From the NCBI GenBank assembly GCA_051294375.1, contig CM119264.1, forward strand, positions 15,272,355 through 15,336,354: a DNA stretch of 64,000 nt, in the 5' to 3' direction. Both the position numbers and the translations under genes were made by a program. The stretch comes from Paraspadella gotoi. Lineage: Eukaryota > Animalia > Chaetognatha. Of the stretch, positions 8,696 to 57,728 are shown one piece after another. The stretch's first letter is position 1. The number at the start of each line of letters is the position of its first letter. Below the pieces are notes generated by a model. That model searched no databases. It was given only the letters and a program-made list of their open reading frames with translations, and was not told where the DNA came from.

Positions 8696-8929
8696 TGAAG
8701 AGACAGTAATTAATGTTATGTGTCAGTGACAAAACCGTTCAATATAAGCAGTCCCTGAGCTTCGGATCAGGCTGTAACACCATGTTACAGGCGGGTTAAG
8801 CGCCCCGTCCCTCTTAACTGCTAGGCGGCCACCGAGCTAAAACCCCGGACCTTTGGGTTGGGAGGCGAATGACTTGCCTCTGGCACCAATGGCCGCTGAT
8901 GAACGGTTGGAGGATTTTAGTCAACCATA
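8696..8929 (-). mobile_element. Solo LTR, family D (TA...CA): 72-nt tRNA-like module (8825-8896) followed by a twister
   Basis: TSD AAAC (8692-95 / 8930-33); acceptor-like stem GCGGCCA/TGGCCGC. Confidence 0.85.
8747..8822 (-). ncRNA. Twister ribozyme, family D (U8798^A8797)
   Basis: AGCAGT(P5)-GAGG-GA-CGG-GGCGCT-TAA-CCC-GCC-TGTAAC/GTTACA(P3)-G-CCTGA-TCCGAAGC-TCAGG-GACTGCT(P5). Confidence 0.8.
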
Positions 8930-10289
8930 AAACAAATATTTATTAATTAATAACTCTTATGATCAATCGATCATTCAACCATTCAATTAATAAATTGATA
9001 TTCATAATTAAAAGAAAAAGTTTATTTGTTTATAAACAACGGGTTTTTATACCAAAAAACGGACATGTTTCGACTTTTCCGAATCTACATCAGCCCGTGA
9101 GAGTCGAAACATGTCCGTTTTTTTTAAAATAAAAGCCGTTGTTTGTAAACAAATAAACTTTGCTTTCACTTATCTATAAAAGCAACGAAAAGAAAGTCTT
9201 AACACAATATTCATAATTATATTTATGGTCATGGTTTATGAAAGACTAACAACAGAAAACATGCTTTCAAGAAACTAACAACTATAAAAATAATGAGGAA
9301 GAGAAATAGAAAAAGCGAAAGCGAAAGTAAGAAAGAGAACAAAATATACAAAATTATGATTACATTGTGCTTTTTCTTTCATTATCTTTTTTCATATTTT
9401 AATTATGATATGAGTCAAAAGAAAGATTTATTATAATGCTATATTTGATTAGCTGATGGGTAGATTCAAGATAGTTTTCTCAAACCAATTTTCTCATTTA
9501 TCAACTATAATGTGTACCTCATCTATCTGAAATAGAAGATAAAGACGATTCAGGAGCCGGAGTTAAGGAGAAAATACCATTAAATACTTTAATTAGTTTT
9601 AAATATTAATATTTTAAATTTAAAGTTAAATTATAAAATTAACCGATTTTAACGGTTAACCGTTAAAAACGTTAGTTTTAACGGTTAAGCGAAGTTCCTT
9701 TAAAATTAACGGTTAACGGAACCCTAGGTACAACCAATATATAAGTTTCGGAGCACATTATTTCTGAATTCCATCTTGTTTAATTTGGAATTTGGGGCTT
9801 CAAACCACCTTTTTTTTAAAAAAGACCATGAGCCATATGTACATTTCTGAAATATTTTTGAACCTCAACGATTTTTTCATGATAACATTTACAGTTCATG
9901 TTATGTGCAGCACATCCCTATGTCAGCATTCCTGGATACTTGTCCTTCAAAAAATCCCTCATTTTAACCATTTTTGCTTCTTAATCTGTTACAAAGTTAC
10001 TAACAGTAACACAGAAAATATTTTTATACAGATCTGTTAAAAAAGTTTAAACTTTGAACCCCCTACTATCTCGCTTGTCTGTCGTCCTATTAATTAAAAT
10101 TTGGGTTCATTTGAAAGCCAAGACAAATATCTTTTATCCGAGCCAATGACGAGGTTTTTAGGCTAAATATTATAGAAGCTGTGCTAAAATAAAAAACAGG
10201 ATCGAAATTTTGTTTTACAATTTTTTTTTTATTGCGGAAAAAAAAAAACAGCTGATCCCCAAAAGGAAAGCTGCAATAGTTGAGCTTTG

Positions 10290-11460
10290 GAAGGGGGGGT
10301 TTGTCAGGATATAGGATCGCCAAACAGTTTTATTTCCCTTTCACAACCATCTGCAAAGTTGTCAACAAATTTGAAGCAACAGGACACCTTGGACGAGCTG
10401 TTGGAAGCAGGCGGCCTTGCATGTCCACTAAGGCGGGCCAAAATTGATCACTTTTTATAATTAAGAGTTCTGTAATATAAAATTTATTTGTCCATCATAT
10501 ACTTAATCAATATTTAATATCACTTTTTTAACTAGCGAAGCACATTATAACATTAAAGCATTTAAATATTTATCAATGCATAAGCAATTCAATTTTTTTT
10601 TCTAAAAATTTTATTTTTAAGAACGGATTCGGATAGCCCAAAGTATAATGCGTTTTTTAATATTTTGATGATCAGTGGGTCAAATAATGGAAAAACTCTT
10701 GAAAATCATCATCGTCGTACTATAATTTTTATAGTTTTTGCTAATTTTAAGCAACAAAACAAAAGCAATTTGAAATCTTGTAGTAATATTTTTTATTTAT
10801 TTTTTTAATCTCTACCCAAATCCGTTTTTAAAAATTCTGCTTTTGAAAAAAAAATTTTTCAAGATTTATAGTAATACGATAAATTCTTCTATATTATTAA
10901 CTATGTATAAAATCTTAATTTTTTTTTAATTTCGTCATCCCACGGGGATACTCTAACGTTATTTATATTACAGAACTCTTAGTTTTTACTTTATTCCGCC
11001 CTATTGTCCACGGAGAGTGAGAACGATGACGTGGATACTGGATAGTGGATATTCTCGCAATTCAAGATTGTAAGGCTTCTGCAAGCCAGTTGGGAAAAAA
11101 ATGGAGAGAAGAGGAAGTGTTGCCAGTCGTTCAACAATGAATGGGCGGTTTTTCATGGAGGATAGAGCTCTTGAATACAAAGCTAAAACCACTCAAAAAT
11201 GTCATGAAGAAAATGGGATCGAGGTGCTCAAAGTTGGCCCGGAAACTCACCAGACTGCAACTTCATCGAAAATGTTTGGTCAAGGATGAAAAGGGATATT
11301 TTGCAGTATAACGCCATGACAGTCAACAAAATCTAAAAAAAATTTAAAATGAATTTGGGGAGCTGAACCCTTCATATTTGTGCAGCCCCTACAACTCTCT
11401 CCCTCATTGCAGGGAGGTGGTGCTGGAAGCAAATAGTGGTCTGACAACGTATTAACTGAG
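10290..11460 (+). pseudogene. Tc1/mariner transposase relic, with an inserted TIR element (~10462-10981)
   Basis: TICKVVNKFEATG...GSRRP (HTH) and FMEDRA...WPGNSPDCNFIENV (DDE); inner IR AAGAGTTCTGTAATATAAA. Confidence 0.75.
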
Positions 11461-11890
11461 TCCTAAAAAGTACTACTTTCCTTCAAATAACGAAATAAAA
11501 TGCTTGGTTCTGATAATATATCCAGAAGTTAATAAGAATGATAATTTTATTCACAAAAGGTTTACCCAGAGCCTTATAACTTTTATTGATACTTTACAAT
11601 ATAAAAAAAATCTACATCTACAGCATCAATATTTTTAATACCACTCTTTTTTTAACATATGAATTAAGATTCATCCTTGAATCTATCCTTATGAAAATTA
11701 TGCAATAACCATTTGACTTAAGGCAGATATTTCTTATAATAACGGTTTAACTCAAAAGGTAATAAAAAAGAACTGAAAATGAGTATAAATGAGAAGTATT
11801 TTCTTTTGCATGGAACTTGTATTTTTTGTCATATATAAATGAGACAGCTCATATGAATTACAAGAGGCTAAAGTTTTTCGATATCTAAAT

Positions 11891-11896
11891 TTTATT
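11891..11896 (-). promoter_or_regulatory. Candidate polyadenylation signal AATAAA of IGHMBP2
   Basis: About 105 nt downstream of the stop codon; the AT-rich context makes this weak. Confidence 0.4.
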
Positions 11897-11999
11897 TATC
11901 AAATCTTACATGAAAATGCCGAAAAATAGCTGGAAAGTAATCGCGACAAATTTTTTTATCATGGTAGTTTTAACACAGACAAATTATTATTTCCATGCT

Positions 12000-12107
12000 T
12001 TATTTTCTTTCAGCGACTTTAGGTTTTCTCGATTGTTCCATATCATTTAAACGCGCTTCCAACTTTCGATGAATGTGCACTCGTTCTGTCGGATCCATTT
12101 CTTTGTC
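12000..12107 (-). CDS. IGHMBP2: IGHMBP2 last coding exon (DKEMDPTERVHIHRKLEARLNDMEQSRKPKVAERK*)
   Basis: ctaacag|GAC, phase 0, TAA at 12002-12000; resembles the C-terminal helix of metazoan IGHMBP2 (DPxxRxxLxRxL). Confidence 0.85.
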   Translation of the reverse strand, partial: DKEMDPTERVHIHRKLEARLNDMEQSRKPKVAERK

Positions 12108-14129
12108 CTGTTAGGGGGAATAAACATCAGACTTGTAAAACTGATGGATTATCAAACTACGGTAAATTTAAATGAGGACATGCAGCCACAAATCCATAGG
12201 AAAAAATTATCTTGACATAATTATTATTTTTAACCGAATTTCTGGAAAACGCGTTTGCAATTTGGGTAGTCAGATTTGAACGGAATTCTCTATTAGAAAA
12301 ATGTTGAATTTTTTTTAAAGCGAGATTCTCGTCTACATAATTATCATTTTTTATTTGGCTGGAATCTGAAGACTGAAGAGTAGGGTGAAGTAAAAGTTTG
12401 GAATCAAAATTTAGCAGTTATATTTTGAAAACAATCATATTAGTGAATACTAATCTGTAATTATTTTTTCTTATACATATATATTAACCCAGTCAGCTTA
12501 TTTTGTATATACTATATAGTATATAGCAGACATGTTTCGACTCTCTACTCTTAACAAGTATTTCTCTTTAACATTAAGTTTGAGAGAAAGAGATAGAAAG
12601 AGGGAGAGTTTCCAACAAAGAATAGTGGGATAAAGGATAGTGGTCAGATGTGAGGACAGGTGAAGGTAAGGACAGGGGAGGAGTGAGTTTGGTGAAATTT
12701 GAAATTAAGAGAGAATGGGAGAGAGAGAGAGAAAAAATCTTGACATTTGACAATATACAATAATGATAAAGGAAGAGAAAAATAAATTGGCAAACTTAAA
12801 AATTAGACTAAAAATAATAATGGTAATAATGAATAAATTAATTAAAGGTTGAAATTTAAATGGAAGAATAAGTGATGAGGGATAGGTAATTAAAGAGTTA
12901 GTGAAAATAAGATGAGAAAGGAGCTCAAAGTGAGCTGGCCCCAAGACCTTTCCATATATGAAAAGTTTTAAAATAAAAAAACGAGTATTGTAAAAAAGGT
13001 GCCCATACATCATATGAATTTTTTGAACATTTTTTTTATTCTATTTTTTTGTTATCTATTCATGATTTATAGTTAATAATAAAGACTATTGTGAAGAGTC
13101 GATTTAGTTTTGAAATAAATAGAATTTTTAATTCATCTTTGATTTTAATTCATTTCATATCTTGTATAGTTGATGAATTTATCAACAAGTCGGATCTATT
13201 CTTAAATTAAGCAAGCTTAATATAATTTTCTAAGTCTTTTACAACCTTTGATTAAGCAATGTATTTAACACAAATTATAATTCAACTCAGTTCTGGATAA
13301 CTAGCTTGACAAAGGTCATGAATGAAAAAAATAGAATAACTAGTTAGGCACAGAGTTGATTGGAAGGCCTGGTTTAGGGTTGGGAAAGAGGCCTGTGGGT
13401 GATGTGTCGAAGGTTGTTAGGTTTAGGATTAAGGCATGAAGAAGTACGGGAGGCCCGGGTTTGGGTTGGGGGAGAGGCACGGAGTTGAATGAAAGGCCCA
13501 GCTGAGGGTTGGGGGAGCGGTTAGGGTTGAGGCACTAGGATGTACGGGAGGCCCGGGTTGGATAGGCATGGAGTTGAACGGGAGGCCCGGGTTAGGATTG
13601 GGGGAGGGGCCCGTGGGTGATGTGTTCATCCCCATGCCTCAACATCAGCTGCGAGCCTCTCCTCTAACTCGCGCCTTTCATTATATTCGCAACTTTTATC
13701 ACTGGCGAGGCACTGAGAAAGCTTGTATAGAGAGACCTGCAGGTAAAATTCCCGCTCTTCTCCGGACCCACCAAACTCCTACACTGACCTCCAGGTTAAA
13801 CTCCCGCTCTTCTCCGGACCCACCAATCGCCTACACAGAAAGCTTGTATAAGCTTGTATATTGTATAAAGTATACTGTATATTGTATAGAGAGACCTCCT
13901 GGTTAAGCTCCCACTCTTCTCCGGACCCACCAGTGGGGGTACTGGCGATATCGCCATGGCGACATCACTATCTGAATATACTACGACTAGAAACTACTCT
14001 AGAAAAGTTTAAATCTATGATTAATTATTATGATTATAGATTAATCAATTTAATCAATTCACAGACAAAGGTCTTGAAGTCCGCCCTTCATCATCATGGT
14101 TAATATTAATTATTCAAGCAAGGGCTTAC

Positions 14130-14851
14130 CTCGCTTAAACTTTTAGAGTTTGTTTTCTTAGTTGTTACAGCACTTGCCTTTCTTGGAGTCTGCTTGGCCT
14201 TTATACGTGCATTGTCGCCGCAGCCATGAATCTCAGCCATGTGATGCTTTAAGCAAAATCGCGCAGTACAAAATTCACACGTCTGACCTAAGACTTGTAT
14301 CTTAGCTTTGCAACCGTCGAAGTTACATACGTTGTCTCTCAGGCGAGCCAATTTAATTAATTCGTCGAAATCCTCGCTACAACCGTCTCTTAAAGGATCA
14401 GGACGTTTTGCTAAATATTTTTTCTTTTTAACAGATTGTTCCCATGCTACAGCAGTACTATTGGCAGCTTCAGCACTCTGCGGTGCTAACAACCGTTGAC
14501 ACTTTAGTCGATGTAAAGCGAAATTTTGGAGTAAAACCAACTTTTGGCAAGTATCACAAGTCCGATCCGATTTCTCTTCAGGATTTTCCGATTCAGTGAG
14601 TTCTTTTAAATGGTTATTTTTTAAATCCTCCTCTTCCAATTTGACGTAGCTTTTTTTCTTCTTATTCTTTTTCTTGTTTTTCTTATCGAATACTGTTAGG
14701 TGATTTGGGTCTTGATCACTTGTAAGGTGAGTGGATGATTTAGATGTGGTCGGCTTATTTTTTCTTAAAACAAGACGCCTCGCAGCACCTTCACCAACGC
14801 TTTCGTGGAAGAGACCTTTTTTGCTGGCAACCTCGTGCACGATCGCTCGTT
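14130..14851 (-). CDS. IGHMBP2: IGHMBP2 exon: R3H domain (ERAIVHEVASKKGLFHESVGEG..R) and AN1-type zinc finger (CNFDGC...CEFC...FCLKHHMAEIHGC)
   Basis: aacag|AA completes GAA; GAG|gtaagc donor; ORF track 14106-14840. Confidence 0.93.
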
Positions 14852-14884
14852 CTGTTCGACGTTAATTAAGCATTACATTGAATA

Positions 14885-15826
14885 CAGAAGGCTTCATATT
14901 ATAAAATGAGGTACCCGCATTTTTTGTGACCAGAATCTGTTCCCACCAAACTACCTGATCGAATTTCATGAATTTCAAATTTACATATAATAATTTATAA
15001 TTTACCTGATCGAATTTCATGAATTTCAAATTACATATAGAGTCCTAATGACAATATAAATAGAATTTTGATATTCAACCCCTGACAAGAGATACAGGGC
15101 CCTGGGGGGCCGAAAAAAAAGCTACAAATTTGTTTCCCATTTTTTAGTAGCATTGACGTTTTAAACACATAAAAAACATTTTAGAACTAAAATTGATAAG
15201 TTTTCAATAATTAAGCATGGTTTAAAGATGCATGGTTCATAGTTTTACTTCCAATTTTCCCAAATTATTTCAAATCTGATTTGAACTGCTGATGTTCATG
15301 AAGCTGAAAATTAAGGTAAATTATTATTTTTGTGATAATAAATGTTTTTGTGGAAGTGTAAACATTTATGCAACTTCAGAAAAAAAATTTTGACAATTTT
15401 TTGCCCCTATGGTTGACCCCTCCGGGGGCCCCATATCTCGGCTCAGGGGCCAAATATTGAAATTCTCATAGGGATCGTTCATACCAAATTTTAATAAATT
15501 TGGTCCAGTAGTTTTCTCGGAACGGGTTCTGGTCACAAAAAAGGGGTACTGTGGTGGTATATTCACTCCACCTCACGTCCACAATACCATTGGCTCCGAG
15601 GGGGAACACACTATCCCAGGAGTTGTGTTCCATCCACAGTCCTAACGAATCCCTCTGCGTTGGCAAAGCGAGACCGTCCTAGGGTAACCGCGCCAGTGAC
15701 TGGATGTGTCACTGAGGGTCGGAAGCCCACAAAGCCAACAGTGAGATGCCCTATCCCAATGGGAATCACAGGCAACACAACACGGCTGTTGCCATAGTAC
15801 CTCATTTTATAATATGAAGCCTTCTG
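14885..15826. mobile_element. Tc1/mariner-type MITE forming most of an IGHMBP2 intron
   Basis: TA-CAGAAGGCTTCATATTATAAAATGAGGTAC perfect IR at 14883-14914 / 15797-15828, continuing inward past the inserted LTR. Confidence 0.85.
15550..15796 (+). mobile_element. Solo LTR, family A, inserted in the TIR of a Tc1-type MITE; twister at 15659-15739 (U15685^A15686)
   Basis: TSD GTAC (15546-49 / 15797-800); same twister core with one P4 mismatch. Confidence 0.87.
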
Positions 15827-15859
15827 TAAGCATTAATTAAAGGTATTCCAAAGACCAAC

Positions 15860-16344: not shown

Positions 16345-16386
16345 CTAAACAGATTAAGTTTAGGTTAAACTTAATTTGTTTGCTGA

Positions 16387-21907: not shown

Positions 21908-23610
21908 TGTGATTTCCCTGCGATCAACGCCATCTTGAATTCTGTTATCTTAGATTCACAACGTCTCAGCGTCAACGTCAACGGTCACGTGATATTCATC
22001 AAAATCGTTCCCTGAGACCTTGCCACATATATCAGTAATCACAAAAAAATAAGTTTTTATTTATATTAAACAGTAAGGCGTAGTAAAATTTCTAAATTTA
22101 ACTTTAATTAAAATTCTAAAAGTGAAGAACGAACAACATTATACTAATGAACATTTGTAGCCAATCGAGTGTATTATTTCACTTATGGAAATAAAGTCGC
22201 CGCTCCCGGGATCGAACCCGGACTATCTCTGGCGAGATTCCCAGTCATCAGCCAACCAGACCCCTGGAAATCCAACAACTTCGAATTTAACAAAAAGCAT
22301 TTCAAGATCTGATCATTTGTTTTCTTCATCTCCTGAGATGTCAGAATTATTTAAATCTTTAATATTCTTTTGTTTATAGACTGTTTACTTTTTAATTGTT
22401 AACTGAAGATTCTTCAGTCTGGTTTTTATCTCTTGAAGTTAATACATGTTATTAATTATTACTTCACTCGTTTTTAATTACTAATGTGATAAGTACATTA
22501 AGAAGTCTTATAAACAATTCGAATACCGTTTCACGCCTTCCCTGCGACAACATCTCTTAAAGACTCAAACTCTCACTAATGTCGTCTTAGAACCGTGCAA
22601 CGCCAGTGCCACGCCCTCCGTCACGCTGTGGCGCGCCTACAAGGCCTTACCACACTTGGTGAGACTGACGCGAACGAGACCAACCTTCAAACGGGAGAAT
22701 CCAACGGAAATCAACCTCTTCTGAGGTAAGATTGGGTGAGTGAATGGGAAATTGAGTGATCCACCCAATCCGCTCACACTCTATTAATTTTTCTCCCTCT
22801 CTCTCGCGACAACGATTCGACGGAGATAAAGAGAACGGCATCAATGAGTGGCTCCGATTTACGCTCGCGCCTCCGCTCAGCACAACGCGACGCCGACGAC
22901 GAGGCGGCGCGACTTCAGCTTCCAGTCGGTTTTGGACGAGATCATCGATCAAGATCGAACTCACCTCGACTCGCAGAAACAGCGCCTACTTTCGACTATT
23001 AAGCAGCCGGCGACGATCATTTCGAGGACGCCGTCTAACTAACGGATCAGGAACTGGATCTGCGTGATGAGCGAGCGAGCGAGCCTCAAACAGAAAGCCA
23101 GATCTGCCGGACTTCGACTCGAGTAACATCGAGATCTGGATCAAAAGAATCGAAGCGGCTTATACTCGCGCGGGAGTAACCAATCCAAAAAACAAATTTG
23201 CTTACCTCGAGAGTAAGATTAGGATAAACGTTGATCCAAACATTAACCAATATCTTTTTGGCGAAACCAACGAGACGACTTGGAACCAATTTATCGACTA
23301 TCTGAGAAGAGAATATGGCATCACTCGACGACGACAAGCTGCACATCTTGACGCTATCGACGTCGACGGCATTAAGCCGTCGAAGATGTTGGCCCAACTC
23401 GAGGAACGGACCAAAACTCTTACTATAGATGACGTCAAAAAGGAGAAAATCCTCCGCGAGCTTCCTAGCGAAATTCGACGGCAATTGAAAGACAAAGCGG
23501 ACGACCTCTCAGCCAAGGAACTTTGTCAGCTGGCCGATCGACATTATGAGGTCGACGGGACGCTCAAAATTCGCCAATCATCGTCTCTGGTGAATAACGT
23601 CGCCAGTCAA
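21908..23610 (+). mobile_element. 5' part of a Gypsy element: LTR ~21908-22654, PBS TGGTGAGACTGAC, gag remnant
   Basis: TGTG...CACA ends; gag-like LPDFDSSNIEIWIKRIEAAY...KFAYLESK (~23100-23560); it truncates a family E element. Confidence 0.75.
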
Positions 23611-23939
23611 TTTTGCCTATCTATAAAAACTTTTTATTGCTTTGTGACTAATCATGCAAGGTTTTTTGATTTAACTCTATGTACTTCCATAGTTAGATTT
23701 TGGGTCTAGCATAAGGATCGTCGCAATCGCATATGAAAAATCTGGATTGACGACAAATTTTGATACTAAAAAAAATAAAATTTGAGAAAAAAAAAATTTA
23801 TAAACAGAAAGAAAAAATATATTTTGCAATTACCAATTAAAAAAATAATAAAGTACGAAGAAAATTAAAGTTAGTTTCTTGAAAAAAAAAATTTAATTGT
23901 CAAATATACTGATCAGCAGACGCAGCCCCTCAGGAAAAA

Positions 23940-23979
<40 letters not shown>

Positions 23980-29236: not shown

Positions 29237-29563
29237 TGAAGAGACAGTAATTATTATTATGTGTTAGTGCATTGCCAGGTTGAGGCATGTCGCTTGAATG
29301 TGTTGTTGCTGTTGTTCGGAAGTCGGGCTCACCAACAAAAGAGACAGTAATTATTATTATGTGTTAGTGATAGAACCGTTCAATATAAGCAGTCCCTGAG
29401 CTTCGGATCAGGCTGTAACATCAAGTTACAGGCGAGTTAAGCGCCCCGTCCCTGCTAGGCGGCCACCGGGCTCGAAACCCGGACCTTTGGGTTGGGAGGC
29501 GAATGACTTGCCTCCGACACTAATGGCCGCTGATAAACGGTTGGTGGATTTTAGTCCACCATA
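29237..29563 (-). mobile_element. Family D element: 5' LTR (29337-29563; tRNA-like 29459-29530, twister 29388-29456), PBS, ~50-bp internal remnant and 3' tip of the second LTR
   Basis: TSD GTTC (29233-36 / 29564-67); PBS TGGTGAGCCCGAC (29334-29322) resembles the tRNA-Trp 3' end; T-arm CCGGG-TTTCGAG-CCCGG. Confidence 0.85.
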
Positions 29564-29721
29564 GTTCTTTCTTTCTGTATGGCAAGGTTGCCCATAATCT
29601 TTCTTCTCTTTCTTTTTTGAAGAGAACCTCGCGTCGTGACCTTTTTTGATCATTTTTTTTCTCTCGGTCCATTTTCAATGCCGGTCATTTTTTTTTGGTG
29701 ACCGATTTTCAGTCGTTATAA

Positions 29722-30003
29722 GTATAAGGCGATAAGTGGGCAGAAGATGACTATCCGGAATTTCTATAACCCCCTCTAGCAGACATGGAACGGGTCCTGG
29801 GCTTGGAACCAGGCTTGAGGGTTTGCCACGCCCCCAAGGCGGCTTACGGCCGTCCTCACTCTTCCCGCAGGGTAGGTACCGGGTTGGGATTGAACCCGGT
29901 ACCTAGTGGTCATGAGCTGATGGCTTTACTCAATGAGCCACCTGGTCACAACTGAAAGAGTCATGCTTATAGGCGGGGTGAACCTAGGCAATGCCCGACT
30001 ACA
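29722..30003 (-). mobile_element. LTR, family C: A/B boxes (29928-40, 29886-96) followed by a twister (29790-29868, U29846^A29845)
   Basis: GCGGG(P5)-GAGT-GA-GGA-CGGCCG-TAA-GCC-GCC-P3-G-CCTGG-TTCCAAGC-CCAGG-A-CCCGT; left boundary and TSD unresolved. Confidence 0.75.
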
Positions 30004-35100: not shown

Positions 35101-38100
35101 TCAAAATATCTACAGAAAATTCCGTTCTTGCGAATCCGGTAGCAAAGAGGATACGAAGCATGAGTTTGTCGATATTGAAGAGTGAAAATCGAAGAAGGAG
35201 ATCTTGAAGTTGAAGTTCGATGAGTTCCTGGAGATAGTGAAGGAAGTGACGAGATCAAAGGAAACTATGGGAATCTTGAGTGAAGCAAAGTTCGTCGTCG
35301 TCGTCGCAGCCGAAAAGTCGTACGGAGTGAACAACTCCCTAGCGCGAGGACTTACGGAGAAGTCCGTAAGAACCATGTTTCTGTTCGTGCAGCCGCAGCC
35401 ACTCTTAGCTAGAAGGCGACAGTCCGCCGCCAATCGAAGCTTTTCCAATCCCAATTCTGACCCTACAATCACGCTCGCAAGAGGACAAGGCAAATCAAAG
35501 TGTGACTTTTGTGAAAAAGCTCACTTGGTCACAGGGGTTTGGTTCAAAATTCCTGAGTTGACGATTGACGAGAGGGTGAGCTGGATGAACAGAGAAAGGT
35601 TTGTGTCGACCTTTGTTCGGGCGAGGACACATTGCAAGGGACTGTTCCAATCTTATGGTAGGAGTCTACGTCGTTCTTAGAATCGAGGAAGATTTTTTGG
35701 AAGATTTTCGTTTAAAATCTGATACCAACTATGTCAACGGCCCTGGGAAAAATTCGGGTAAAAAAATAGATGTAAAAACACTTCGATTCCGATCCTGTTC
35801 ATCTGAAGGCTTCGCATTTTTTTTCTCTTGACAAATAACCATCATTTTGACATCGAACTATTCGATTCATGGACTGGTCGCGCTCGGAAAATATTTTTGA
35901 CCAGCAATTTTTATATATAAAATTAAAGGGATTTCTCACTTCAATACAATGTCAACGGCATTTAAGGTATGTTGTCATCTTTACAATAAATCGAATCAGG
36001 AAGTCCGATAGCATATGTCTGAAGGGTCTCAAATTTTTCTTTACATTTTATGGTTAATTTAATATGATACGATCATGGTAAATGAATTAGTCCATTTTGG
36101 TGAAATTTTTATTTACAAGTAAAAGTAAAAGAGGAGCTAACGATCGGAAATTCTAGAGTTTTCAACGGAGTCAGATTGGAAAAAATCTTATATGGCGAAA
36201 ATCTTCCAAAGAAGGGGTGGATTTCCAAAGATTTTGGTTAATATTTCTTATTTATGGTCGGATTTTTTTTAAACTTAAAAATAACAATATTGCCATCATT
36301 CTACATTGGCGCGACAAGAATATATAAAAAAAACCTAGACTTTTTTTCGTCAGAGATTAGTCCTACTTATGGGCTGCCAAACGTGGCGGTCAAAGGCATC
36401 ACGCATCCATTCACAGAGAGGAGTCGAATCAGGAACAGAGTTCTTCTTGACTAGCTGCAGCGTACGTGACGACAGGAGCATTTCGACCGATAGTTCCAGT
36501 CGTCGTGAAAAGCGGACATAGGTCGGTCGTTACGTACGCTTTATTAGATAGCGGCGCTACCCGTTCAGCCATGTCATGAAATTAGCGAGAGAATTAGATT
36601 TAGCAACGTACGCAGAATATACAAATTTAACAACTTATGACAAAGTGTCAAGAACCTGGGAGATTATGGTGACATCGAATTGACGAATTTAGAAAATACG
36701 TTTTCAACCGAAATAAGAAAAGTTATGGTAGGAGAGATATTAACGACAGAGACAGACCGACCGACTCGAAACGAAGAAATCGAAGATTATCAGTACATGA
36801 AAGGAGTTGAGTTTATCGAATTGGAAGATGACTCGGTCGAAATGATACTCGACGCGAGATTGGCACATACTTGGGTCGGAGGTGAGACGAGAAAAGGACC
36901 TGAAGGTTTATCCTGTTGCGCTGAAGACAGTGTTCGGGTGGACATTAGTGGGAGCGAGTGAAAACGAAAGCGGGGAAACACATTAGTTGCTGTTCAACGA
37001 CACATGAGCATGAGAAGTTGGAGTATTTGATTGCATCGATGTTTCGTTCATGACTTTTTGATGAGAGGAACTGAGAATATCCGTCTGAGGTGCAGATCTC
37101 CGTCGGCTGAAACAGTTTATGCTTTAGAGCAGCTGGAGAACGAGATTTATTTTAACGAAAAGACCGGTCATTACGTAGCGCCGTCGCCGTGGAAAAAGGA
37201 AGGGAAAAGACTGCCGAGTTTCTCGAAACGATTAAAGACGAGGTGGTGAAAAACGCGGAGAGGCAGAGCGAGGAAGTTGGCGAACAAGATGCGGAAGGAT
37301 CCGTTGCTGAAGGAGGGGGTGTTCCGAACGATGGAGGAGACGATCGAATTGGGCCATGCGAGAAAGGCCGTAGTGGAGCATCCGCCGCCGGGTCCAGCCG
37401 GAATGTTTCGCACCGTTGCTCGTCGTCACGAGAGCGGACAAGCCGGGCAAGTTCAGAATTGTCAAGATGCAGCATCGAGAGTGAATGGGAATGCGCTGAA
37501 TGATCACTTGATTGGAGGGCCGGACAACCTCACTCCGTTAATTGGTATGTTGCTGAAGTTCCGCAGAAAGAGATATACGATTTCCGCAACATCAAGGGGT
37601 TCTTCCATCAAGTCGATTACATCCAAAAGACGTAGCAGCCTTTAGATTACCACTGGTATACAGACAAATCGATGCAGACGTGGAGGTTCACGAGCCGCTG
37701 GTACACGTGTTCGGGGGGAGCGGGCAGTCCAGGGGTCGCGACGTTCGTGCTGCAGTATCACGGGAAAGAAGCTGAGTTTCACTGGAGAATTTTCACCAGA
37801 AGTGATCATCGCGGTTTTTCCTCAAAGTTTATGTGGATGATTATCTCGACGCGCTTGGACGGCATTAAAGAAGCTAGAAAGATTGCGGTTGAGACATGAC
37901 GGAGGCGATGAAGAGAGCGGGTTCGAGCTCACAAAGTGGCAAGCTTCACATCCTCAAATCCTGGTGGACGATCCAGAAGGAGATGAAGAAGAAGATGAAA
38001 CGGCGAACGAAGCAGTTGACGGGGGGTTGGAGGAAGAACTGGAGGATAATCTCGAGGGCTTTGGCCGGGGAATGCAATGCCGGAGGATCCGTCGCTCGAT

Positions 38101-40406
38101 GAACATGATTCTAAAGTTTTGGGAACGGGATACAATTCGAAACGTGATGTTTTCTTGTACGAGTAACAGACAAAGCAGAGAAGAGGCGAAGACGAAGGGA
38201 AAGTCTTGAGCTGGTCGCGTCGGTCTTCGATCCGCTGGGGTTGGTTGGCCGCCGTTCGTGTTGAAAGGGCGAGAATCATATCCAAAAGATATGATGGAAA
38301 GGGCTGGACTGGGACGACAAGTTGCCTGAAGAGTTGTTCGAGGCGTTTGACAAGTGGCGAAATAGAAAATGTGCTTTCTGAAAAGATTAGAATTCCACGG
38401 TGGACGAGCATCTTGATTGGAATGTGTGAAGGACCATGTTGATCGTGTTTTGTGATGCAAGTTACGAAGGTTATGGAGTGGCTATTTACATAAAGAAGGA
38501 GAATAAAGACGGGAGAAAAACAGTCACGTGACATTACTTTTTGCTAACAGCTCACGTAGTACCAGTAAGATGGCAAGAAAAAAATTATAGTGGAGGACCA
38601 ACTTGATCATGGAAGATTCAATGCCAAGACTGGAACTGAACGCGGCAAGATTGGCGGCGCAGACTCGAGACACAATGATAAGAGAAGCGGGTGGAAGAAT
38701 TTGACGAAATTCACATGACGGATTCGATCACAGTAATTCGATGGAATAAGAGACTGGAAGAAACGTTTTAAAACATATGAAAATTTCGATTGAAAACCAT
38801 TTCGACTCCTCTCGAACCAAGTTGAATGGAAATATGTACCATCTCAGAAAACCCAGCCGATTTGACAAGTCGTGGTAGATGCTGATGATGCTGAAAGCTG
38901 GAAAAAGTTTTCACAAAGGACCAGAATGGCTTCGCCGAAAAGAGGAAAGACTGGCCGAGCCACAAACGATTTGACAGTATGAAGAAAAAGAAAGAAGTAA
39001 ATGTGGAATATCAGCGCAATTCATGACGATAGTGAATTTTAGTCCGATGGAATTTAATTTTTTGCCATTCTACCTAGAGAGTATCCGAAAAAAGATGAGA
39101 ACATGAAAAAAGAGGATTGGGTGCTGAAAGTGACGGAAAAAATTAGTATGTGGGTGAAGAAGGTGAAAAGAATTGTTTACTTTGCAAAAGCAGTGAAGAG
39201 ATTGATCGAAAATAGAATTCGAAAGAAGAAAGGAGAAAACGATAGAGAAAAAAGAAATGAGAATGACGGGAGACGAATATAAGAGAGCAGAGTTAAAATT
39301 GATCAAAGCAATTCAAAGAAAAAATTCGAAAAGAAATATTGAATTAATAAAGTTGGGAGTCATGACAGCCGAATTCGCACAGAGAATTGAGAAGTAGAAA
39401 TTCGAGAAATTGTCGCTATGAGTCCGTTCGTCGACGAGGAGGTTTGATGAGGACTGGAGGAGGTTGGGGAACTCGAAAGGGTTATCATATGACGCTAAAC
39501 ATCCATAATATTACCAAAGGATGACGAGAATGTCGACTCACTGATTCGCCATGAACATATCACATTATTCCATTCTGGTGCATGTGCAACATTCCATTCA
39601 CTGAGACAAAGATTTACCTTGTTGGGAGGGAGGCCAGCAGTGGAAAGATCTTCCGCCGGTGTTTGAAGTGTCAGAGAAACTTGAAGGTTCCAACGCCGCA
39701 AAAGATGGCTGAACATCCAGAGTTCCGTGTAAACGAAGCAATTCCATTGAGATAACTGGACTTGATTGTTTTGGTCCGATACCAGTGAAACATGCTGGGC
39801 GGGGTCTGAACAAAAAGAATGTAGTAATATTCACATGTTTAAACTACTCGAGCGGTAGCCTTTGAAATACTAAAGGACATGACATCGCAATCAAATGCTC
39901 AGCGCGCTAAATTAGATTTAAAAATGTTTACCCAGGTGTACGCACATTCATCTCGGACAACGGTACAAATCTCGTAGGAGCGAGCAACGAGATCGAGAAG
40001 CAATTGCATCATCTCCAAAGCAACGAAAAACTTCACGAAATCGCCGCCAAAGGTATTACCTGGACCTTCGGACCGCCAAACGCTCCGCATTGGGGAGGAG
40101 CATGGGAAAGGTTTGATCCGTGAGACAAAAAAGCATATCAACGCCGTCATCCCATCAGAGTTAGACGTCGACACATTCGCAACGATCCTAAGTGAAATAT
40201 CAGGTATTATGAATCGACGCCATTAACATTCGAATCTTCCGATCCAAAAAGCGATATTGCACTATCTCCAGCAAATTTTCTGTATCCATATTTATTTACA
40301 TCGACATCAACAGCGAGCGTGGCGGTCAGTGAAGACCTGCCTTCTATTGTGCGCGGCGAGCGCTCATACCATGGAGCAGCGGCCAGAAGCGATCTCTCTG
40401 GTGGTG
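32150..40406 (+). mobile_element. BEL/Pao LTR retrotransposon, heavily frameshifted, 3' end lost in the gap
   Basis: Gag from 32821; protease YALLDSGA (~36535); RT LNDHLIGGPDNL and FYVDDYL (~37830); RNase H VFDPLGWL, FCDAS, MPRLEL, NPADLTSRG; integrase GLDCFGP, SDNGTN, APHWGGAWE. Confidence 0.93.
35659..36365 (+). mobile_element. Family B element nested in the BEL/Pao element
   Basis: 7-bp TSD CTTATGG. Confidence 0.88.
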
Positions 40407-40506
40407 NNNNNNNNNNNNNNNNNNNNNNNNNNNNNNNNNNNNNNNNNNNNNNNNNNNNNNNNNNNNNNNNNNNNNNNNNNNNNNNNNNNNNNNNNNNNNN
40501 NNNNNN
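40407..40506. other. Assembly gap (100 N)
   Basis: Run of n. Confidence 1.
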
Positions 40507-41205
40507 TTGTTTAATTCTCCCCTTTTAACTTATCCCATACCGTGTTGTAACTTTTTACCTATAATTTTTGAACAAACAGATTGAAAAACAAATCTTTAAA
40601 AAATGTGCTTACCCATTTAACTTAACAATTTTGTTATTTACCCATTTAAAAAAAATTATTGAAAACAGAATGAACACAAATAAATAAGAACTTATTTCTT
40701 TGTGATTACTGATGACTATAATGTATTTCTCGATATATTAGCTCTAACACATCAATGATTACGTATTGTTATGCTGAATGACCTTTCCTCTTAAGATAAC
40801 GCAAAATGATGCGGTTTTTTAAGATTTAACAAGAATAATAACTAGTCCAACTAATTACACTTTAAAAATAAATAAATCTAAAGTCGAAATGAAAAATAAA
40901 CTACAATCACAAAAAATCACAAATTCAAAGACATCTTAGAAATTGTTTTTAAAGAAAACGCATGAAGCTTATTTCTTTATATTACAGATATAATTAGCTC
41001 ATCATGTGGGGAATATTTTGCATTAGTTTCAATTAATTTAAAGAATGTTCAGTTAGTTTAAAATGATGAAATAAAAAAATGCCATTTTTTGACTAACCAT
41101 TTTAAAAAATTCATTGCAGACAAACGGTGAATCATTAACAAAAATGCTTCTACTATGGCAACAGCCGGGTTGCCTGTGATGCCCATTGGGATGGGGCATC
41201 TCACT

Positions 41206-41286
41206 GTTGGCTTTGGGGGCTTCCGACCCTCAGTGATGCCTCTAGTCACTGGCGCGGTTACCCTAGGACGGTCTCGCTTTGCCAAC
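41206..41286 (-). ncRNA. Twister ribozyme in the 3' LTR of the TRIM (U41260^A41259)
   Basis: Reverse complement of the 48991-49071 core, with GA-CCG, TAA and TCGGAAGC intact. Confidence 0.78.
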
Positions 41287-41689
41287 GCAGAGGGAAGTCG
41301 TTAGGACTGTGGATGGAACACTACGCCTCGGATGGTGTGTTCCCCTCTGAGCCAATGTATTTGGCTGAAGGATGGTGGACGTGAGGCGGTGTGAATATAC
41401 CGCCACAGGATCCCCGGGCCAAGACATCACTCAGGTTCCTCAAGCCTGAGAGGTGTCTGCAAGACTGTTACCATAGTGGGAGAGAGAGAAGAGAGCGTGA
41501 GTTGTGGGGGCATAGGCGTTTGTCGTAGCGTACCCCAGGGCATAGGCGTTTGTCATAGCGTACCCGAAGTCGGCAGGGCATAGGCGTTTGTCGTAGCGTA
41601 CCCTGAAAGGTTGCATGTCGATAGTAGGGCTCACCACTTATGGCAACAGCCGGGTTGCCTGTGATACCATTGGGATGGGGCATCTCACT

Positions 41690-41769
41690 GTTGGCTTTGG
41701 GGCTTCCGACCCTCAGTGATGCTCCAGTCACTGGCGCGGTTACCCCTAGGACGGTCTCGCTTTGCCAAC
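41690..41769 (-). ncRNA. Twister ribozyme in the 5' LTR of the TRIM (U41742^A41741)
   Basis: Same core; small homopolymer indels in P1 and P4. Confidence 0.72.
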
Positions 41770-41886
41770 ACAGAGGGAAGTCGTTAGGACTGTGGATGGA
41801 ACACTACGCCTGGATGGTGTGTTCCCCCTTGAGCCAATGTATTTGGCTGAAGGATGGTGGACGTGAGGCGGTGTGAATATACCGCA

Positions 41887-44948: not shown

Positions 44949-45205
44949 TGTGGCAGCAAGACTTAAAGCTGCCTCACTGCTGTCCGTCCTCAGCCTCGTC
45001 TCAATGGCTGAGCAGGCTAAATCATCTCATTCCATCCGTGCGTCCCGGGTTCAATCCCTGGGTATCCCGGTTCTGGCTTAAATGTGACGGTGCCGGTATA
45101 AACATGCCAGTGACAGGAGGCGGTCACTGAGGGTCCGCAGCCCCTACGCCAGTTAGTGAGATACCCCGCGTCCCGGGTATCACAGGCTATCCTCCCGTTG
45201 CCATA
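44949..45205 (+). mobile_element. Solo LTR, divergent subfamily A', with intact Pol III A-box (45005-16) and B-box (45048-58)
   Basis: TGTGGC...GCCATA; TSD GTAG/ATAG; TGGCTGAGCAGG and GGTTCAATCCC. Confidence 0.82.
45073..45152 (+). ncRNA. Twister ribozyme, subfamily A' (U45099^A45100)
   Basis: CTGGC-..-ATGT-GA-CGG-TGCCGGTA-TAA-ACAT-GC-P3-A-GGG-TCCGCAGC-CCC-..-GCCAG; perfect 4-bp P2; pseudoknot flipped relative to family A; one conserved loop A is C. Confidence 0.78.
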
Positions 45206-48868: not shown

Positions 48869-49123
48869 TGTGGCGGTATATTCACACCGCCTCACGTCCA
48901 CCATCCGTCAGCCAAATCCATTGGCTCAGAGGGGGAACACACCATCCCAGGCGTAGTGTTCCATCTACAGTCCTAACGACTTCCCTCTGCGTTGGCAAAG
49001 CGAGACCGTCCTAGGGTAACCGCGCCAGTGACTGGAGGCGTCACTGAGGGTCGGAAGCCCCCAAAGCCAACAGTGAGATGCCCCATCCCAATGGGCATCA
49101 CAGGCAACCCGGCTGTTGCCATA
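48869..49123 (+). mobile_element. Solo LTR, family A (TG...TA ends), carrying a twister fold
   Basis: TGTGGC...GCCATA flanked by TSD ATGC (48865-68 / 49124-27). Confidence 0.88.
48991..49071 (+). ncRNA. Twister ribozyme, P5-type permutation; predicted cleavage U49017^A49018
   Basis: GTTGGC(P5)-GCGA-GA-CCG-TCCTAGGG(P1)-TAA-CCGC-GC-CAGTGAC/GTCACTG(P3)-A-GGG-TCGGAAGC-CCC-GCCAAC(P5); loop CGG pairs with CCG. Confidence 0.8.
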
Positions 49124-50374: not shown

Positions 50375-51905
50375 TGTGGATAAGGCGCTACACTATCATC
50401 GAAGTTAACGTTAAAATCGGAAAAATTATACTTATGGGATATTCAGATAGCTTATCCAGAATAATTCTTGAAAACTTCAGAGGTTCTTCTCATAAATTCT
50501 TAATATTTTCAAAAAGGACAAAAATGTTTCATATAATTTTTTTACGATTCCTAAAGATGAACCAAACGCTATGCACAGTTTTTTTAGCTTTCTTTAAATA
50601 TTTTTGCCTTACAAATACGGTAAGACTGAAGTTTTAAAGAGAAAATTTGAATTAATAAATTAAGCTGGGAAGTTTATAATACTAACGTGGATTTAACGAG
50701 TAAATTATTTTATTATCAAGTAAACAATTAATGAAAAACATTTTGATTTTCTGAATAAGGAGGTATCGGAATAGAGTTTCAGTAAAATAATAAATGAGTT
50801 TACATTATATAGTTTTTGTCATTTTCGTTACCAAAAAACGTTTTAAATTTTTCTTAAATGGGAAGGTTGATCTTTAAAGCCCGTAATTTTAAAATTAAAA
50901 AAAAAAATAAATAAAATTTTTTTTTCAATGTCTATTTGTTCTATCACAAATCCCATCGTGAGTTCAATGGTTTGCCTCATTTGCCCGATCCATTTCCCGT
51001 TCATTCCTCGATCCTTAGCACTACTCTGTCTTTCTCAATGAATGGTTGCTCTTTTTATTGTTTCTATTCTTTTATTTTTAAATTACAATACATAACTGAC
51101 AATTACATAGGTCGTTGTTGTGGTTCATCAGTTGAAAATTGCTCTTAAAAATGAAATTTACTTTATAAACTAGTCTTATCGAATTGGTGTAAAATAAATA
51201 ATTTTGAAAATCATTTTGGTAATTACTTATGAAGCGGAACTTTGCGGAAGATCTCCCGAATATATCATGTGCGTTATAAAATCAATCAAATTAAATAAGA
51301 ATGATCATGTTTCCACATGTTTTCATATAGTTTTTTAGCTAATTTTTGATACAGTAAAACATTTTTTGAATAATTTTTAATTCATCCATGCTATATATTC
51401 AGTTATTTACTAAGATTTTAAAAAAATTTAAAATGTATCAAGTTCCAAGAATATAGCTCGACAAAGTGAGTCAAAAATAAGGAAAACCCCATATGTCCAG
51501 AAAAACTGATTTTTGAAAACTGATATTACACGAGAGGTTTTTTATGATACTTCTTCAAAGATTAAAAGCATTAATATTATTGTATGATGTACTACCCTTT
51601 TTCCGACTTTAGATGCTAAATCGATGATAGCGCGCTAAGTGGGCTGAAGATGACTATCCGTAACTTCTTTAACCCCCTCTAGCAGCTATGGAACGGGTCC
51701 TGGGCTTGGAACCAGGCTTGAGGGTTTTCCACGCCCCCAAGGTGGCTTACGGCCGTCCTCACACTTCCTGCAGGGTATATACCGGGTTAGGATTGAACCC
51801 AGTGCCTAGTGGTCATGAGCTGATGGCTTTACTCAATGAGCCACCGGGTCACGACTGAAGGGGTCATGCTTAGAGGAGGGGTGAACTTTGCTATGCCCGA
51901 CTACA
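50375..51905 (-). mobile_element. Solo LTR, family C (TG...CA), split by a Transib insertion; twister at 51693-51771 with a G>A change in the 2-bp pseudoknot
   Basis: TSD GATC (50371-74 / 51906-09); closely matches 29722-30003 once 50391-51637 is removed. Confidence 0.82.
50391..51632. mobile_element. Transib-like non-autonomous element, second family
   Basis: CACTATCATCGA...TCGATGATAGCG; 5-bp TSD CGCTA; shares the subterminal TCGGAAAAAGGGTRGTACATCATA with 27541-28831. Confidence 0.83.
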
Positions 51906-55395: not shown

Positions 55396-55549
55396 CTGGG
55401 CGCATTCGTCGACAATGACAACATCGAAAACGCCATGAAAACGCTTGAGAGGTCCTTCTTCACCACCGGTAGTCGTAGTAGCCAAGACCACATCAACGCC
55501 TCCAAGAATACGCTCAACCGCGCGCGATTCGAGATCACGCAACTCTTTT
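55396..55549 (-). CDS. IGHMBP2: IGHMBP2/SMUBP-2 helicase, most 5' coding exon visible in window (KELRDLE...VVLATTTTG...FDVVIVDECAQ, Walker B)
   Basis: ttttag acceptor at 55551-55550, GT donor at 55395; the DECAQ motif II is typical of Upf1-like SF1 helicases; upstream exons not found in window. Confidence 0.9.
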
Positions 55550-56112
55550 CTAAAAAGCAGAAAAATTATTACCCATTTCATTGCGATGATTGGTTATTTA
55601 AACAATTCAATTACTACCGACACTAAATATGAATTGTATAAATTAATCAAGCTTCGGACTGTCTCGCTTCAACGACGAAGCAGTAGGGTGACGGGATCGT
55701 ACCCGGTATGCATAGTTTGGGGCTGCTTTGAGCGAAGCTTTTACTAAAAGCTTTTATTAAAATCTTCGCTCTCAGCAGTTTCCCATTCAAATATTTTAGA
55801 CCAAGATACGATAGCAGTTTTAGGCGCAACACATTGGAATTACCTTTCTGTTTTATATTGTTTTAAAGTTTTATATATAGGTCACATAATCACAAAGTAA
55901 ATGAAGCATATTTCGAGTAATATTTGGTTGTTTTAGTTGAAACTTTGCAGACAAGTCATAAACCATTGGACGTTTGTCGCACTTATCTTTGATAGTTATG
56001 TAGTCGCGTGATCACTCGGAAATATGGAAATAACGGCGGCGTAGCACATTGAAAAATCCGTTTGTAGAAGATGAAAAATAGTAATAATAAAAGTAAGGAG
56101 GAGGTGAAGAAT

Positions 56113-56438
56113 TGTAACGATGTAAGAGAAGTAGAAAAGGAGTGACACGAGCTCTCTCCTGATCCACTTTTATCATCGCCCGGACCAACTTGATCTTACG
56201 GTCTCCTCAGCCCTTTTGCTGTGTCCAGTCAATCTAAGGTCATTGCCAAAGTTAGGGCAAAGCGACCGTGTTGATTGACCGGCACGGAGAAAGAGGAGAG
56301 AGGAAAGGTTTAGAGAGAGAGAGACCGGTGGTAAGTCGCCTCATCCCCCCCATTAAGTTCGGACCTTAGGGGTTCAAACTGACCCTATTTACAGTTGAGG
56401 TGACTTGTACTACTAGTTAAGGAACAAAGTACATTACA
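56113..56438. mobile_element. LTR-like segment (TGTAA...TTACA)
   Basis: Terminal inverted repeat but no clean TSD; partial inverted copy at 57826-57945. Confidence 0.45.
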
Positions 56439-56798
56439 AATACAATATTGTTTCTCCTTAGGGGAATATTTGGGCAAACAATAAGGTCTAGGAGAAACAA
56501 TTGAGGGGACACACTAAAATGGGGTTTGTCTTCCAATTAGTATTTACATATATTTCTTCTCAAAAAAAAATATTTTGGGGAGAAATTTTACAAATAGGAA
56601 ATAGGGAGCTAAAATAACCAGCTGTTCATGATTTTGTTTTTGATGATTTACTTGCTGTTAGGCAAGTTGTGATTAATTGTAACAGGGACCAACTGGTGAT
56701 GATTTGGTGATAGTGCTGATAACCAGTTATCTAATGATCATGGATCTCGCGAATGACTGATAGATCTTAGACATCTAATACAATATATATCTAGTCCT

Positions 56799-57728
56799 TC
56801 AGAGCCCAGACGATGGTATTGTCTTGCATATGCTTGTCTTTGAGGTTGGAGTTGTTGGTACACCGAATCTGGGGATCCAGTTCTGAAGGAAGGCTGTTGC
56901 TACAGTTGCTGCGGAGATATCCCAGAGGGGAAATGTGTCAGGCCAATGAGTAAAACAGTCTACACAGGTTAGAAGGTATGTGTAACGGCATGAGGTGGGC
57001 AAGGGACCCACTTAAGTCAGTGAGAACATGTTCGAAACGCCTCGACGGTGCTTCAAAAGGTAGTGGAGCCTGGGTGTGTCATTGTACCTTGCTGCGCTGG
57101 CAGTCAAGGCAGGCCTGAGCCCATTTTGCCGCGTCTTTGTTGTGGATGGCATCATAAATTTGACTGCGCCAAGTTGTGGGAACCAAGGGGCGCACCCTGC
57201 CTGAACTGACATCGCAGATGTCAAAGTCTTTCAGGTGAACTATCTTGAATCGCAGGCTGGTTTGGGCGTCCGCCAGGAGTCACTAGATCTCCTCGTCGGA
57301 ACTCTTCACCGGCAAGACTTACCATAGTAGGAGAGAAAGAGCGCGAGTTGTGGGGGCATAGGCGTTTGTCATAGAATACCCCAGGGGCATAGGCGTTTGT
57401 CGTAGCATACCCAAAATCGGCAGGGCATAGGCATTTGTTGTAGCATACCCTGAAAAGGTTGCATGTTCGATAGCAGGGCTCACCACTTATGGCAACAGCC
57501 GGGTTGCCTGTGATGCCCATTGGGATGGGGCATCTGTTGGCTTTGGGGGCTTCCGACCCTCATTGACGCCTTCAGGCACTGGCGCGGTTACCCGAGGATG
57601 GCTTTGGCTTTGCCAACGCAGAGGGAAGTCATTAGGACTGTGGATGGAACACAATGCCTGGGATGGTGTATTCCCTCTCTGAGCCAATGGTATTGGCTGA
57701 ACCATGGTAGATGTGAGGCGGTGTGAAT
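56799..57728 (-). mobile_element. Deleted Gypsy element: family A LTR (57488-57728), PBS, TRIM-type internal repeats and an integrase remnant
   Basis: CDVSSGRVRPLVP...WAQACLDCQRSKV...RRFEHV and GPLP...YLLTCVDCFTHWPDTFPL...FLQNWIPRFGVP; twister catalytic GA is mutated. Confidence 0.85.

Follow-up and report, generated by a model that had tools for sequence, protein, structure and literature searches.

Genomic Locus and LTR Copies

The stretch of DNA analyzed here (the window) comprises 64,000 nt of AT-rich, animal-type DNA from the chaetognath Paraspadella gotoi (assembly GCA_051294375.1, contig CM119264.1, positions 15,272,355 to 15,336,354) and carries exons of the animal gene IGHMBP2/SMUBP-2 on the minus strand (14106-43990), with the R3H domain and AN1 zinc finger encoded at 14109-14861. 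The best matches of this gene are to crustacean, fish, and mollusc proteins, with 43-66% identity over part of one exon. In and around IGHMBP2 lie ten short long terminal repeats (LTRs) of 227-284 bp each, 2522 bp in sum, several of them between its exons on either strand. These LTRs, and the putative twister ribozyme carried within them, are the subject of this report.

An initial annotation of the window had named ten LTR copies in four families, and alignment confirmed both the positions and the grouping: family A (15550, 41154, 41639, 48869, and 57488), family A′ (44949), family D (8696 and 29337), and family C (29722 and 50375). Identity inside families is 85-97%, and A and A′ are 71-78% identical over about 100 nt. 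Families A, C, and D show no alignable identity to one another, save for a 17-nt B-box match between A′ and C. The copies and their parts are as follows.

48869..49123, plus strand: solo LTR of family A with TG...TA ends and target-site duplication (TSD) ATGC; A box near 48922, no B box; twister fold 48990-49073, predicted cut after U49017
15550..15796, plus strand: solo LTR of family A, TSD GTAC; twister fold 15658-15741 (U15685) with one P4 mismatch
41154..41886, minus strand: two-LTR, non-coding terminal-repeat retrotransposon in miniature (TRIM) of family A, 733 bp, no TSD, LTRs 96% identical
41639..41886, minus strand: 5′ LTR of this TRIM, lacking its first bases; twister fold 41770-41688
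41408..41638, minus strand: internal region of the TRIM, 231 bp, with primer-binding site (PBS) TGGTGAGCCC from 41636 and a weak purine tract before the 3′ LTR
41154..41407, minus strand: 3′ LTR of the TRIM; twister fold 41287-41204; its ends are the points where many contigs exit the repeat
57488..57728, minus strand: 5′-truncated LTR of family A with a decayed twister core
56811..57280, minus strand: remnant of a broken Gypsy integrase, immediately following the family A leader of the 57488 copy
44949..45205, plus strand: solo LTR of family A′, TSD matching at 3/4 letters; A box about 45005, B box about 45048; twister fold 45072-45156 with every core pair present, predicted cut after U45099
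8696..8929, minus strand: solo LTR of family D, TSD AAAC; twister fold 8823-8742, predicted cut after U8798
29237..29563, minus strand: element of family D, 327 bp, TSD GTTC; 5′ LTR, PBS at 29334, a short internal part, then the final 33 bp of a 3′ LTR
29563-29337, minus strand: 5′ LTR of this D element; tRNA-like unit 29529-29459, twister U29439
29720..30003, minus strand: solo LTR of family C, no TSD; B box about 29896; twister fold 29860-29797, predicted cut after U29846
50375..51905, minus strand: solo LTR of family C, TSD GATC, interrupted by an insertion at 50391-51632; twister U51749 with a T2 mismatch

The 50375 copy of family C proved to be real, with a 1.24-kb insertion splitting it and GATC at both flanks of the 50375-51905 span. 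The insertion itself has 11-bp terminal inverted repeats starting with CACTA and an apparent 5-bp duplication. Of the nine insertion events, five have exact 4-bp duplications (15550, 48869, 8696, 50375, and 29237-29563), one has a partial one (44949), and three have none (29722, 41154-41886, and 57488).

All three LTRs that retain an interior (41639, 57488, and 29337) are followed two bases later by the PBS TGGTGAGCCC, and these are the only three such motifs in the window. The PBS (57485) and leader behind the 57488 LTR are the same as those of the TRIM. Within this leader, three short, hairpin-capable tandem repeats (41492-41608 and 57338-57455) are candidate packaging signals. In public DNA sequencing data labeled as the same organism, depth over the family A LTR is hundreds of times that of its flanks (a summed depth, not a copy number), and contigs exit the repeat exactly at 41154 (145 contigs) and at 41407-41408 (119 and 44), which together mark family A as an abundant dispersed repeat with fixed ends. 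Taken together, the PBS, the 4-bp TSDs, and the two-LTR copy support the assignment of the ten sequences as true LTRs of non-coding LTR retrotransposons.

A Twister Fold inside the LTRs

The proposal that these LTRs hold the twister consensus in its P5 permutation is supported by both sequence and LTR anatomy. The copies follow the order P5′-P2′-GA-NNN-P1-TAA-P2-GC-P3-P4-T-NNN-(N)AGC-P4′-P5 as first described, and this order agrees with the table in PMC8501958 and with the P5 consensus line of Rfam. A structural descriptor of the P5 permutation gave seven matches in the window, all inside the LTRs, including those with the four cut positions claimed earlier (U49017, U45099, U8798, and U29846). 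Dinucleotide shuffling in 250-nt blocks (60 shuffles) yielded a mean of 0.1 and a maximum of two matches, and 957 kb of control loci yielded two with the P5 and P1 descriptors together, neither inside an LTR. Wherever a PBS defines the strand, the matches lie on the sense strand, and the predicted cut falls at LTR position 125-158 in 7/7 LTRs measured.

GA and UAA are present in nine of the ten copies (absent at 57590, within the 57488 LTR), both pseudoknots (3 bp and 2 bp) are complete in eight, and P4 comprises three to five pairs in nine. The T1 triplets vary among families with pairing retained, exactly as had been claimed: CGG/CCG in A, CCG/CGG in A′ and D, and TCC/GGA in C. Damage is seen in three of the ten copies, namely a P4 mismatch at 15685, a T2 mismatch at 51749, and loss of GA, T1, and P2′ at 57590.

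Comparison of A with A′, based on four A copies and the single A′ copy with the decayed fifth A copy left out, revealed that five of 23 pairs have changed on both sides: two in P2, one in T1, and two in P1. In this alignment 94% of cells are paired, against at most 47% in slid controls, a figure that is not to be read as a probability because it rests on two lineages and on a structure read from the same sequences. Of the stems for which covariation was claimed earlier, P2 shows it between A and A′; P2 is incomplete in A, C, and D. RNAalifold, given five whole A/A′ LTRs, predicted P5, three P2 pairs, and P3 unprompted. It also placed hairpins at the extreme 5′ terminus of the LTR and close to its 3′ terminus (48869-49123 and 44949-45205), both lying outside the twister and showing compensatory changes between A and A′. 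Folding z-scores of whole LTRs were considered as a strand-specific signal and rejected, being equally low on the antisense strand. Overall, the LTR motifs are very probably twisters that are, or recently were, active, with cleavage predicted at the positions listed above.

Palindromic P1 and a Possible Dimer

The palindromic P1, like the CsRn1 Gypsy helper clade and the integrase remnant behind the 57488 LTR described below, goes beyond the initial annotation. Between T1′ and UAA, all four families carry a self-complementary, loop-less P1 (TCCTAGGG, TGCCGGTA, GGCGCT, and CGGCCG), for which the chance in random draws is 0.8% for each 8-mer and 2.3% for each 6-mer. The calculated energies of P1 homoduplexes range from −8.3 to −11.0 kcal/mol, compared with +2.7 to +5.6 kcal/mol for the hairpins. 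Co-folding of two A′ cores gave a strand-swapped double twister, in which P5, P2, and P1 form between the strands and P3 and P4 within them, and two C cores were largely swapped as well. The palindromic P1 thus points to a ribozyme that may assemble from two copies.

Elsewhere in the window, three minimal type I hammerhead-like cores of the Penelope-like kind were noted at 807 (plus strand), 20075 (plus strand), and 3371 (minus strand), the last with a clean stem II and a CATG palindrome replacing stem III.

The tRNA-like Head

A tRNA-like unit with A and B boxes had been described directly upstream of the twister. The B box was recovered in A′, in both C copies, and in the D copy at 29337 (there with one extra T), but not in the D copy at 8696. 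ARAGORN found no tRNA in the window, and the Rfam tRNA model scored 14.4 bits on the D unit at 29459-29529 (gathering threshold 29). Judged from these boxes, only some families retain an intact RNA polymerase III (Pol III) module, and the commonest family, A, is without a B box.

This arrangement invites comparison with the Helenus elements (TRIMp3; Kojima 2024, PMC10886601). The elements of 733 bp and 327 bp have the size, LTRs, and PBS by which Helenus is recognized, the 4-bp TSD being present in the shorter of the two and in other copies, and the definition appears to fit A′, C, and D, with A fitting only partly. By eye, the Helenus consensuses available show no sequence relation to these LTRs, and the published animal consensuses in the supplement of PMC10886601, as available, show no twister; the available text of that paper names no ribozyme in Helenus, treats Pol III transcription as putative, and proposes that Helenus LTRs originated by SINE (short interspersed nuclear element) insertion. 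A search of the whole Helenus supplement with five twister L4 strings, in which line breaks can hide matches, gave four occurrences, all in internal regions and none in LTRs.

As a separate observation, the two wasp consensuses Helenus-2_SyJa-LTR and Helenus-2_SyUm-LTR (PMC10886601 Data S1) contain, by eye, an unannotated type III hammerhead-like motif with the core letters, three stems, and a long loop-loop pairing, directly behind the B box; both have a Trp-type primer site.

A Candidate Gypsy Helper

The CsRn1 clade of Ty3/Gypsy is characterized by a tRNA-Trp PBS of the same letters, a 4-bp TSD, and TGT...ATA ends (PMC2582038), with which the PBS, the 4-bp TSDs, and the TG...TA ends of the present LTRs agree. 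At the 57488 copy, the family A LTR, PBS, and leader run straight into integrase-coding DNA at about 57300. The integrase remnant contains frameshifts, one stop, and an internal gap; its Pfam matches (rve, E 4e-4; H2C2, E 0.01) are weak and below cut-off, and a 66-residue piece is 57% identical over 85% of its length to a full Gypsy Pol (P0092). This copy has no gag, protease, reverse transcriptase, or RNase H and no second LTR, and between the LTRs of the window no intact gag-pol was found, the broken integrase behind one LTR being the only coding trace.

From 281 CsRn1-like loci of other eukaryotes, the best 80 were taken as relatives of P0092, and a single assembly supplied 50 of these. A CHCC Gag motif is present in 63/80 and a Trp-type primer site in 52/80; the LTRs contain a twister in 0/80 and a B box in 0/18 examined. 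The tRNA-twister module is accordingly no general CsRn1 trait. No related Gypsy loci were found in viral contigs. The PBS, TSD, and ends, together with the 57% identity to P0092 and its CHCC relatives, make a helper of the CsRn1 clade probable, and the 57488 copy may have arisen by deletion from a coding element or, alternatively, as a chimera that includes helper sequence.

A Gag-like open reading frame (ORF) at 23071-23709 (plus strand), with a weak DUF7041 match and 21-26% identity to CsRn1-like Gag, has no adjoining LTR.

Proposed Mechanism and Its Alternatives

The preferred reading, which we hold in even balance, is a non-coding, Gypsy-dependent LTR retrozyme in which both LTRs would be cut and the released unit circularized and reverse-transcribed. 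Briefly, transcription would start from the tRNA-type promoter in A′, C, and D, or occur by read-through in A, which lacks the B box. The twister would then cleave each LTR at U^A, probably once two copies have exchanged strands and paired via the palindromic P1. Such dimer dependence would delay cutting until the second LTR has been transcribed and would leave a circle with a single ribozyme uncut. In the TRIM, the predicted cuts after U41742 and U41260 lie 482 nt apart, and the unit so released would run from the cut in the upstream LTR through the remainder of that LTR, the primer site, and the interior to the cut in the downstream LTR. Host tRNA ligase could close this RNA into a circle, as RtcB is reported to do in vitro with animal retrozyme RNA. 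tRNA-Trp would prime, and the CsRn1-clade Gypsy helper would reverse-transcribe and integrate. Because the two cuts leave no terminal repeat, passage over the ligated junction would replace the first strand transfer. The missing B box in the commonest family would fit a two-cut release from any transcript.

The two-LTR element at 41154-41886 is non-coding and has the ribozyme motif in both LTRs and a PBS, with the 4-bp TSDs supplied by other copies. For plant retrozymes, it has been proposed that the RNA is circularized and that a Gypsy enzyme reverse-transcribes it around the circle (PMC4918200). Of the twister-based LTR retrozyme proposed in the initial annotation, the twister fold and its place inside true LTRs are supported, and retrozyme is the best reading of how it works; one retrozyme trait, a highly paired unit RNA, was not seen. 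A contig leading from the internal part through an LTR back to the start of the internal part was considered as a possible circle and rejected, collapsed LTRs giving the same path in an assembly graph.

Several results weigh against this reading, beginning with the ribozyme itself. An Rfam scan of the whole window returned no twister. In local scans, the C copy at 29720-30003 matched Twister-P5 at 16.3 bits (gathering threshold 37.6, E 1.1) and A matched twister-P1 at 15.2 bits at 49023-49066 (gathering threshold 67.2, E 1.6), with no twister match on A′ or on the D copy at 8696. The covariance-model check suggested at the outset therefore produced matches at the predicted places, but all of them below threshold and none for two of the LTRs scanned. 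Part of this loss of score arises because the P5 model lacks P3 and expects a loop on P1. A covariance model built on A/A′ recovered the sixth A copy and ranked both D copies next in the window (17.0 and 11.9 bits), but missed C, and it is not taken as cross-family support because 17.0 bits for D lies under the best control at 18.3 bits. Minimum-energy folds of single cores, with pseudoknots ignored, are mostly not the twister fold. P2 has four of four pairs in A′, three of four in A, and two of three in C and D, though flaws in P1, P2, and P4 are described as well tolerated in twisters (PMC11662667). As for the dimer, co-folding gave no swapped form for A or D, that is, swapping in only two of the four families, and a palindrome does not imply dimer dependence because P1 is dispensable in twisters (PMC11662667). 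With respect to the element, the purine tract of the TRIM amounts to five purines, much weaker than in 18 autonomous relatives; the sole two-LTR copy of family A is without a TSD; and both A copies tested have an A box and no B box. Finally, the predicted unit circle is 55% paired (z = −1.2, 60 shuffles), compared with about 70% reported for plant retrozymes (PMC4918200).

Among the other explanations, the one that survives best, although we regard it as rather unlikely, is that the twister stands in for a Pol III terminator in a TRIM of the Helenus kind, so that only the 3′ LTR is effectively cut and no circle forms. The RNA would start at the tRNA-like head within the first LTR, stop at the cut within the second, carry a terminal repeat of ~100 nt, and undergo ordinary strand transfer. 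The position of the twister at the place of the T run in many Helenus LTRs (by eye) speaks for this explanation, as does the fact that a partner-dependent ribozyme would spare the first copy before the second exists. No run of four T occurs in the A, A′, or C LTRs or in the whole 733-bp TRIM, but this absence is weak evidence because the longest A run is also three. The terminator explanation is harder to reconcile with the symmetry of a dimer, which forms two cores and offers no obvious reason to spare one, or with family A, which has no B box.

Less likely still is an autonomous CsRn1-clade Gypsy with twister LTRs as the parent, of which the TRIM and the 57488 copy would be deletion derivatives. 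The direct run of LTR, PBS, and leader into integrase-coding DNA is what such a parent would leave behind. It is, however, a single decayed copy without a second LTR, which could equally be a chimera formed by template switching between TRIM and helper RNA, and among the 80 CsRn1-like loci no twister was found in an LTR.

We consider it slightly more doubtful again that the tRNA-like head and twister are a passenger, SINE-like or Penelope-derived, with no role in replication and either kept by descent or inactive. This view draws on the SINE origin proposed for Helenus LTRs (PMC10886601), on the Penelope-type minimal hammerheads in the same window, and on the low Rfam scores. Against it, the catalytic letters, both pseudoknots, and the palindromic P1 have been kept across four diverged families, and such compensatory retention requires that the fold was under selection while the elements themselves evolved. 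That LTRs rich in GC and in hairpins resemble a twister by chance is highly improbable: there is no Rfam match at gathering level and the cross-family model does not rise above background, but seven matches against 0.1 in composition-matched shuffles, on the sense strand and at the same LTR position in four families, are difficult to explain in this way.

Other Features of the Window

The region at 32800-40500 is GC-rich and has several broken ORFs, which we take to resemble a decayed coding retroelement. Five ORFs and two short frames from it were scanned against Pfam and matched nothing convincingly, and the stretch ends at a 100-N gap (40407-40506). Two adjacent ORFs of 204 and 212 residues at 59514-60709 (minus strand) likewise have no Pfam match.

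Novelty and Significance

Three known parts, an LTR/PBS element, a tRNA-like head, and a twister, are joined here in a way not found in print. In agreement with the initial annotation, full-text literature searches found no paper on a twister in an LTR or on a dimeric twister, Repbase and Dfam lying outside this search. Nor does either appear in the available text of papers including PMC7761336, PMC10085705, and PMC12859917, although large lists of twister candidates in supplements might contain such motifs stripped of their context. In the available text of bioRxiv 10.64898/2026.07.22.740005, LTR retrozymes are mainly from plants and carry type III hammerheads, with twisters unmentioned; animal retrozymes are described there and elsewhere as lacking LTRs, a PBS, and a polypurine tract. 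The sources available (including PMC8501958) link twisters to non-LTR elements. The exact A/A′ core pattern gave no matches in viral contigs and none in metagenome contigs.

A twister in animal LTRs would mean that ribozyme-cut LTRs have arisen more than once with different ribozyme classes. The twister would acquire a second defined job, and a natural dimer-dependent twister, of which no description was found, would be at hand. The system also bears on a standing question, namely whether reverse transcription of an LTR element can rely on a circle instead of an R repeat, and the identifiable candidate helper clade and the great abundance of the elements would aid such tests. A wider proposition, toward which we are more tentative than toward the retrozyme reading itself, is that animals have true LTR retrozymes, Gypsy-dependent TRIMs with a tRNA-derived promoter and a dimer-gated twister whose two LTRs would act as one switch excising a unit RNA for circularization. 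The ribozyme class would be exchangeable, given the hammerhead-like motif at the equivalent place in the two wasp Helenus LTRs, and such elements would form a recurring, overlooked class that might extend to coding Gypsy elements replicating by way of circles.

Comparison with Known Systems

At the level of the ribozyme, the closest model is the type-P5 twister (Rfam RF02684, in clan CL00120 with twister-P1, RF03160). The LTR motifs have the same element order, UAA, and GA, and the GC/GC and three-pair pseudoknots and the L4 pattern are likewise present. They differ in holding P3 besides P5, in a P1 that is a 6-8-nt palindrome without a loop, in a 3′ side of P2 of only 3 nt in C and D, and in scores under gathering.

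A twister serving a retrotransposon is also known from Perere-3 (an RTE, non-LTR element) of Schistosoma mansoni, which has T-variant twisters (PMC8501958). There, a P1-type twister stands at the 5′ end of a LINE (long interspersed nuclear element) and its P1 is completed by the target site, whereas the motif described here is P5-type and lies mid-LTR. The palindromic helix pairing two tandem copies has its counterpart in minimal hammerheads that act as dimers, found in Penelope-like elements and in the non-LTR retrozymes of amphibians (reviewed in PMC6765202, tested in PMC7229834); those belong to another ribozyme class, and the present motifs sit within true LTRs with a PBS and integrase-type TSDs.

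With Helenus (PMC10886601), the elements share a TRIM size of <1 kb, a tRNA-like A/B-box unit in the LTR, a PBS, 4-bp TSDs in animals, and an inferred Gypsy helper; where many Helenus LTRs have, by eye, a T run behind the tRNA-like part, a twister occupies that spot here. With the CsRn1 clade (PMC2582038), they share the PBS letters, the 4-bp TSD, ends of the TGT...ATA type, and a related integrase, and they differ in the weak purine tract and in having no intact gag-pol in the copies of the window.

The nearest counterparts in organization are the plant LTR retrozymes (Cervera, Urbina, and de la Pena 2016; PMC4918200), which are likewise non-coding, with a self-cleaving ribozyme motif in each LTR, a PBS, a 4-bp TSD, and Gypsy-type ends, and in which two cuts would likewise leave a unit RNA without an R repeat. 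The circle predicted here is not unusually paired, unlike theirs. The elements of P. gotoi are not LTR retrozymes as defined, because the host and the ribozyme class differ: an animal takes the place of a plant, and a twister that of the type III hammerhead. They further have a tRNA-derived LTR head, a Trp-type CsRn1 PBS where the plant elements have a Met one, and smaller dimensions, with LTRs of 230-285 bp and a unit of 482 nt compared with 300-400 bp and 600-1000 nt in plants.

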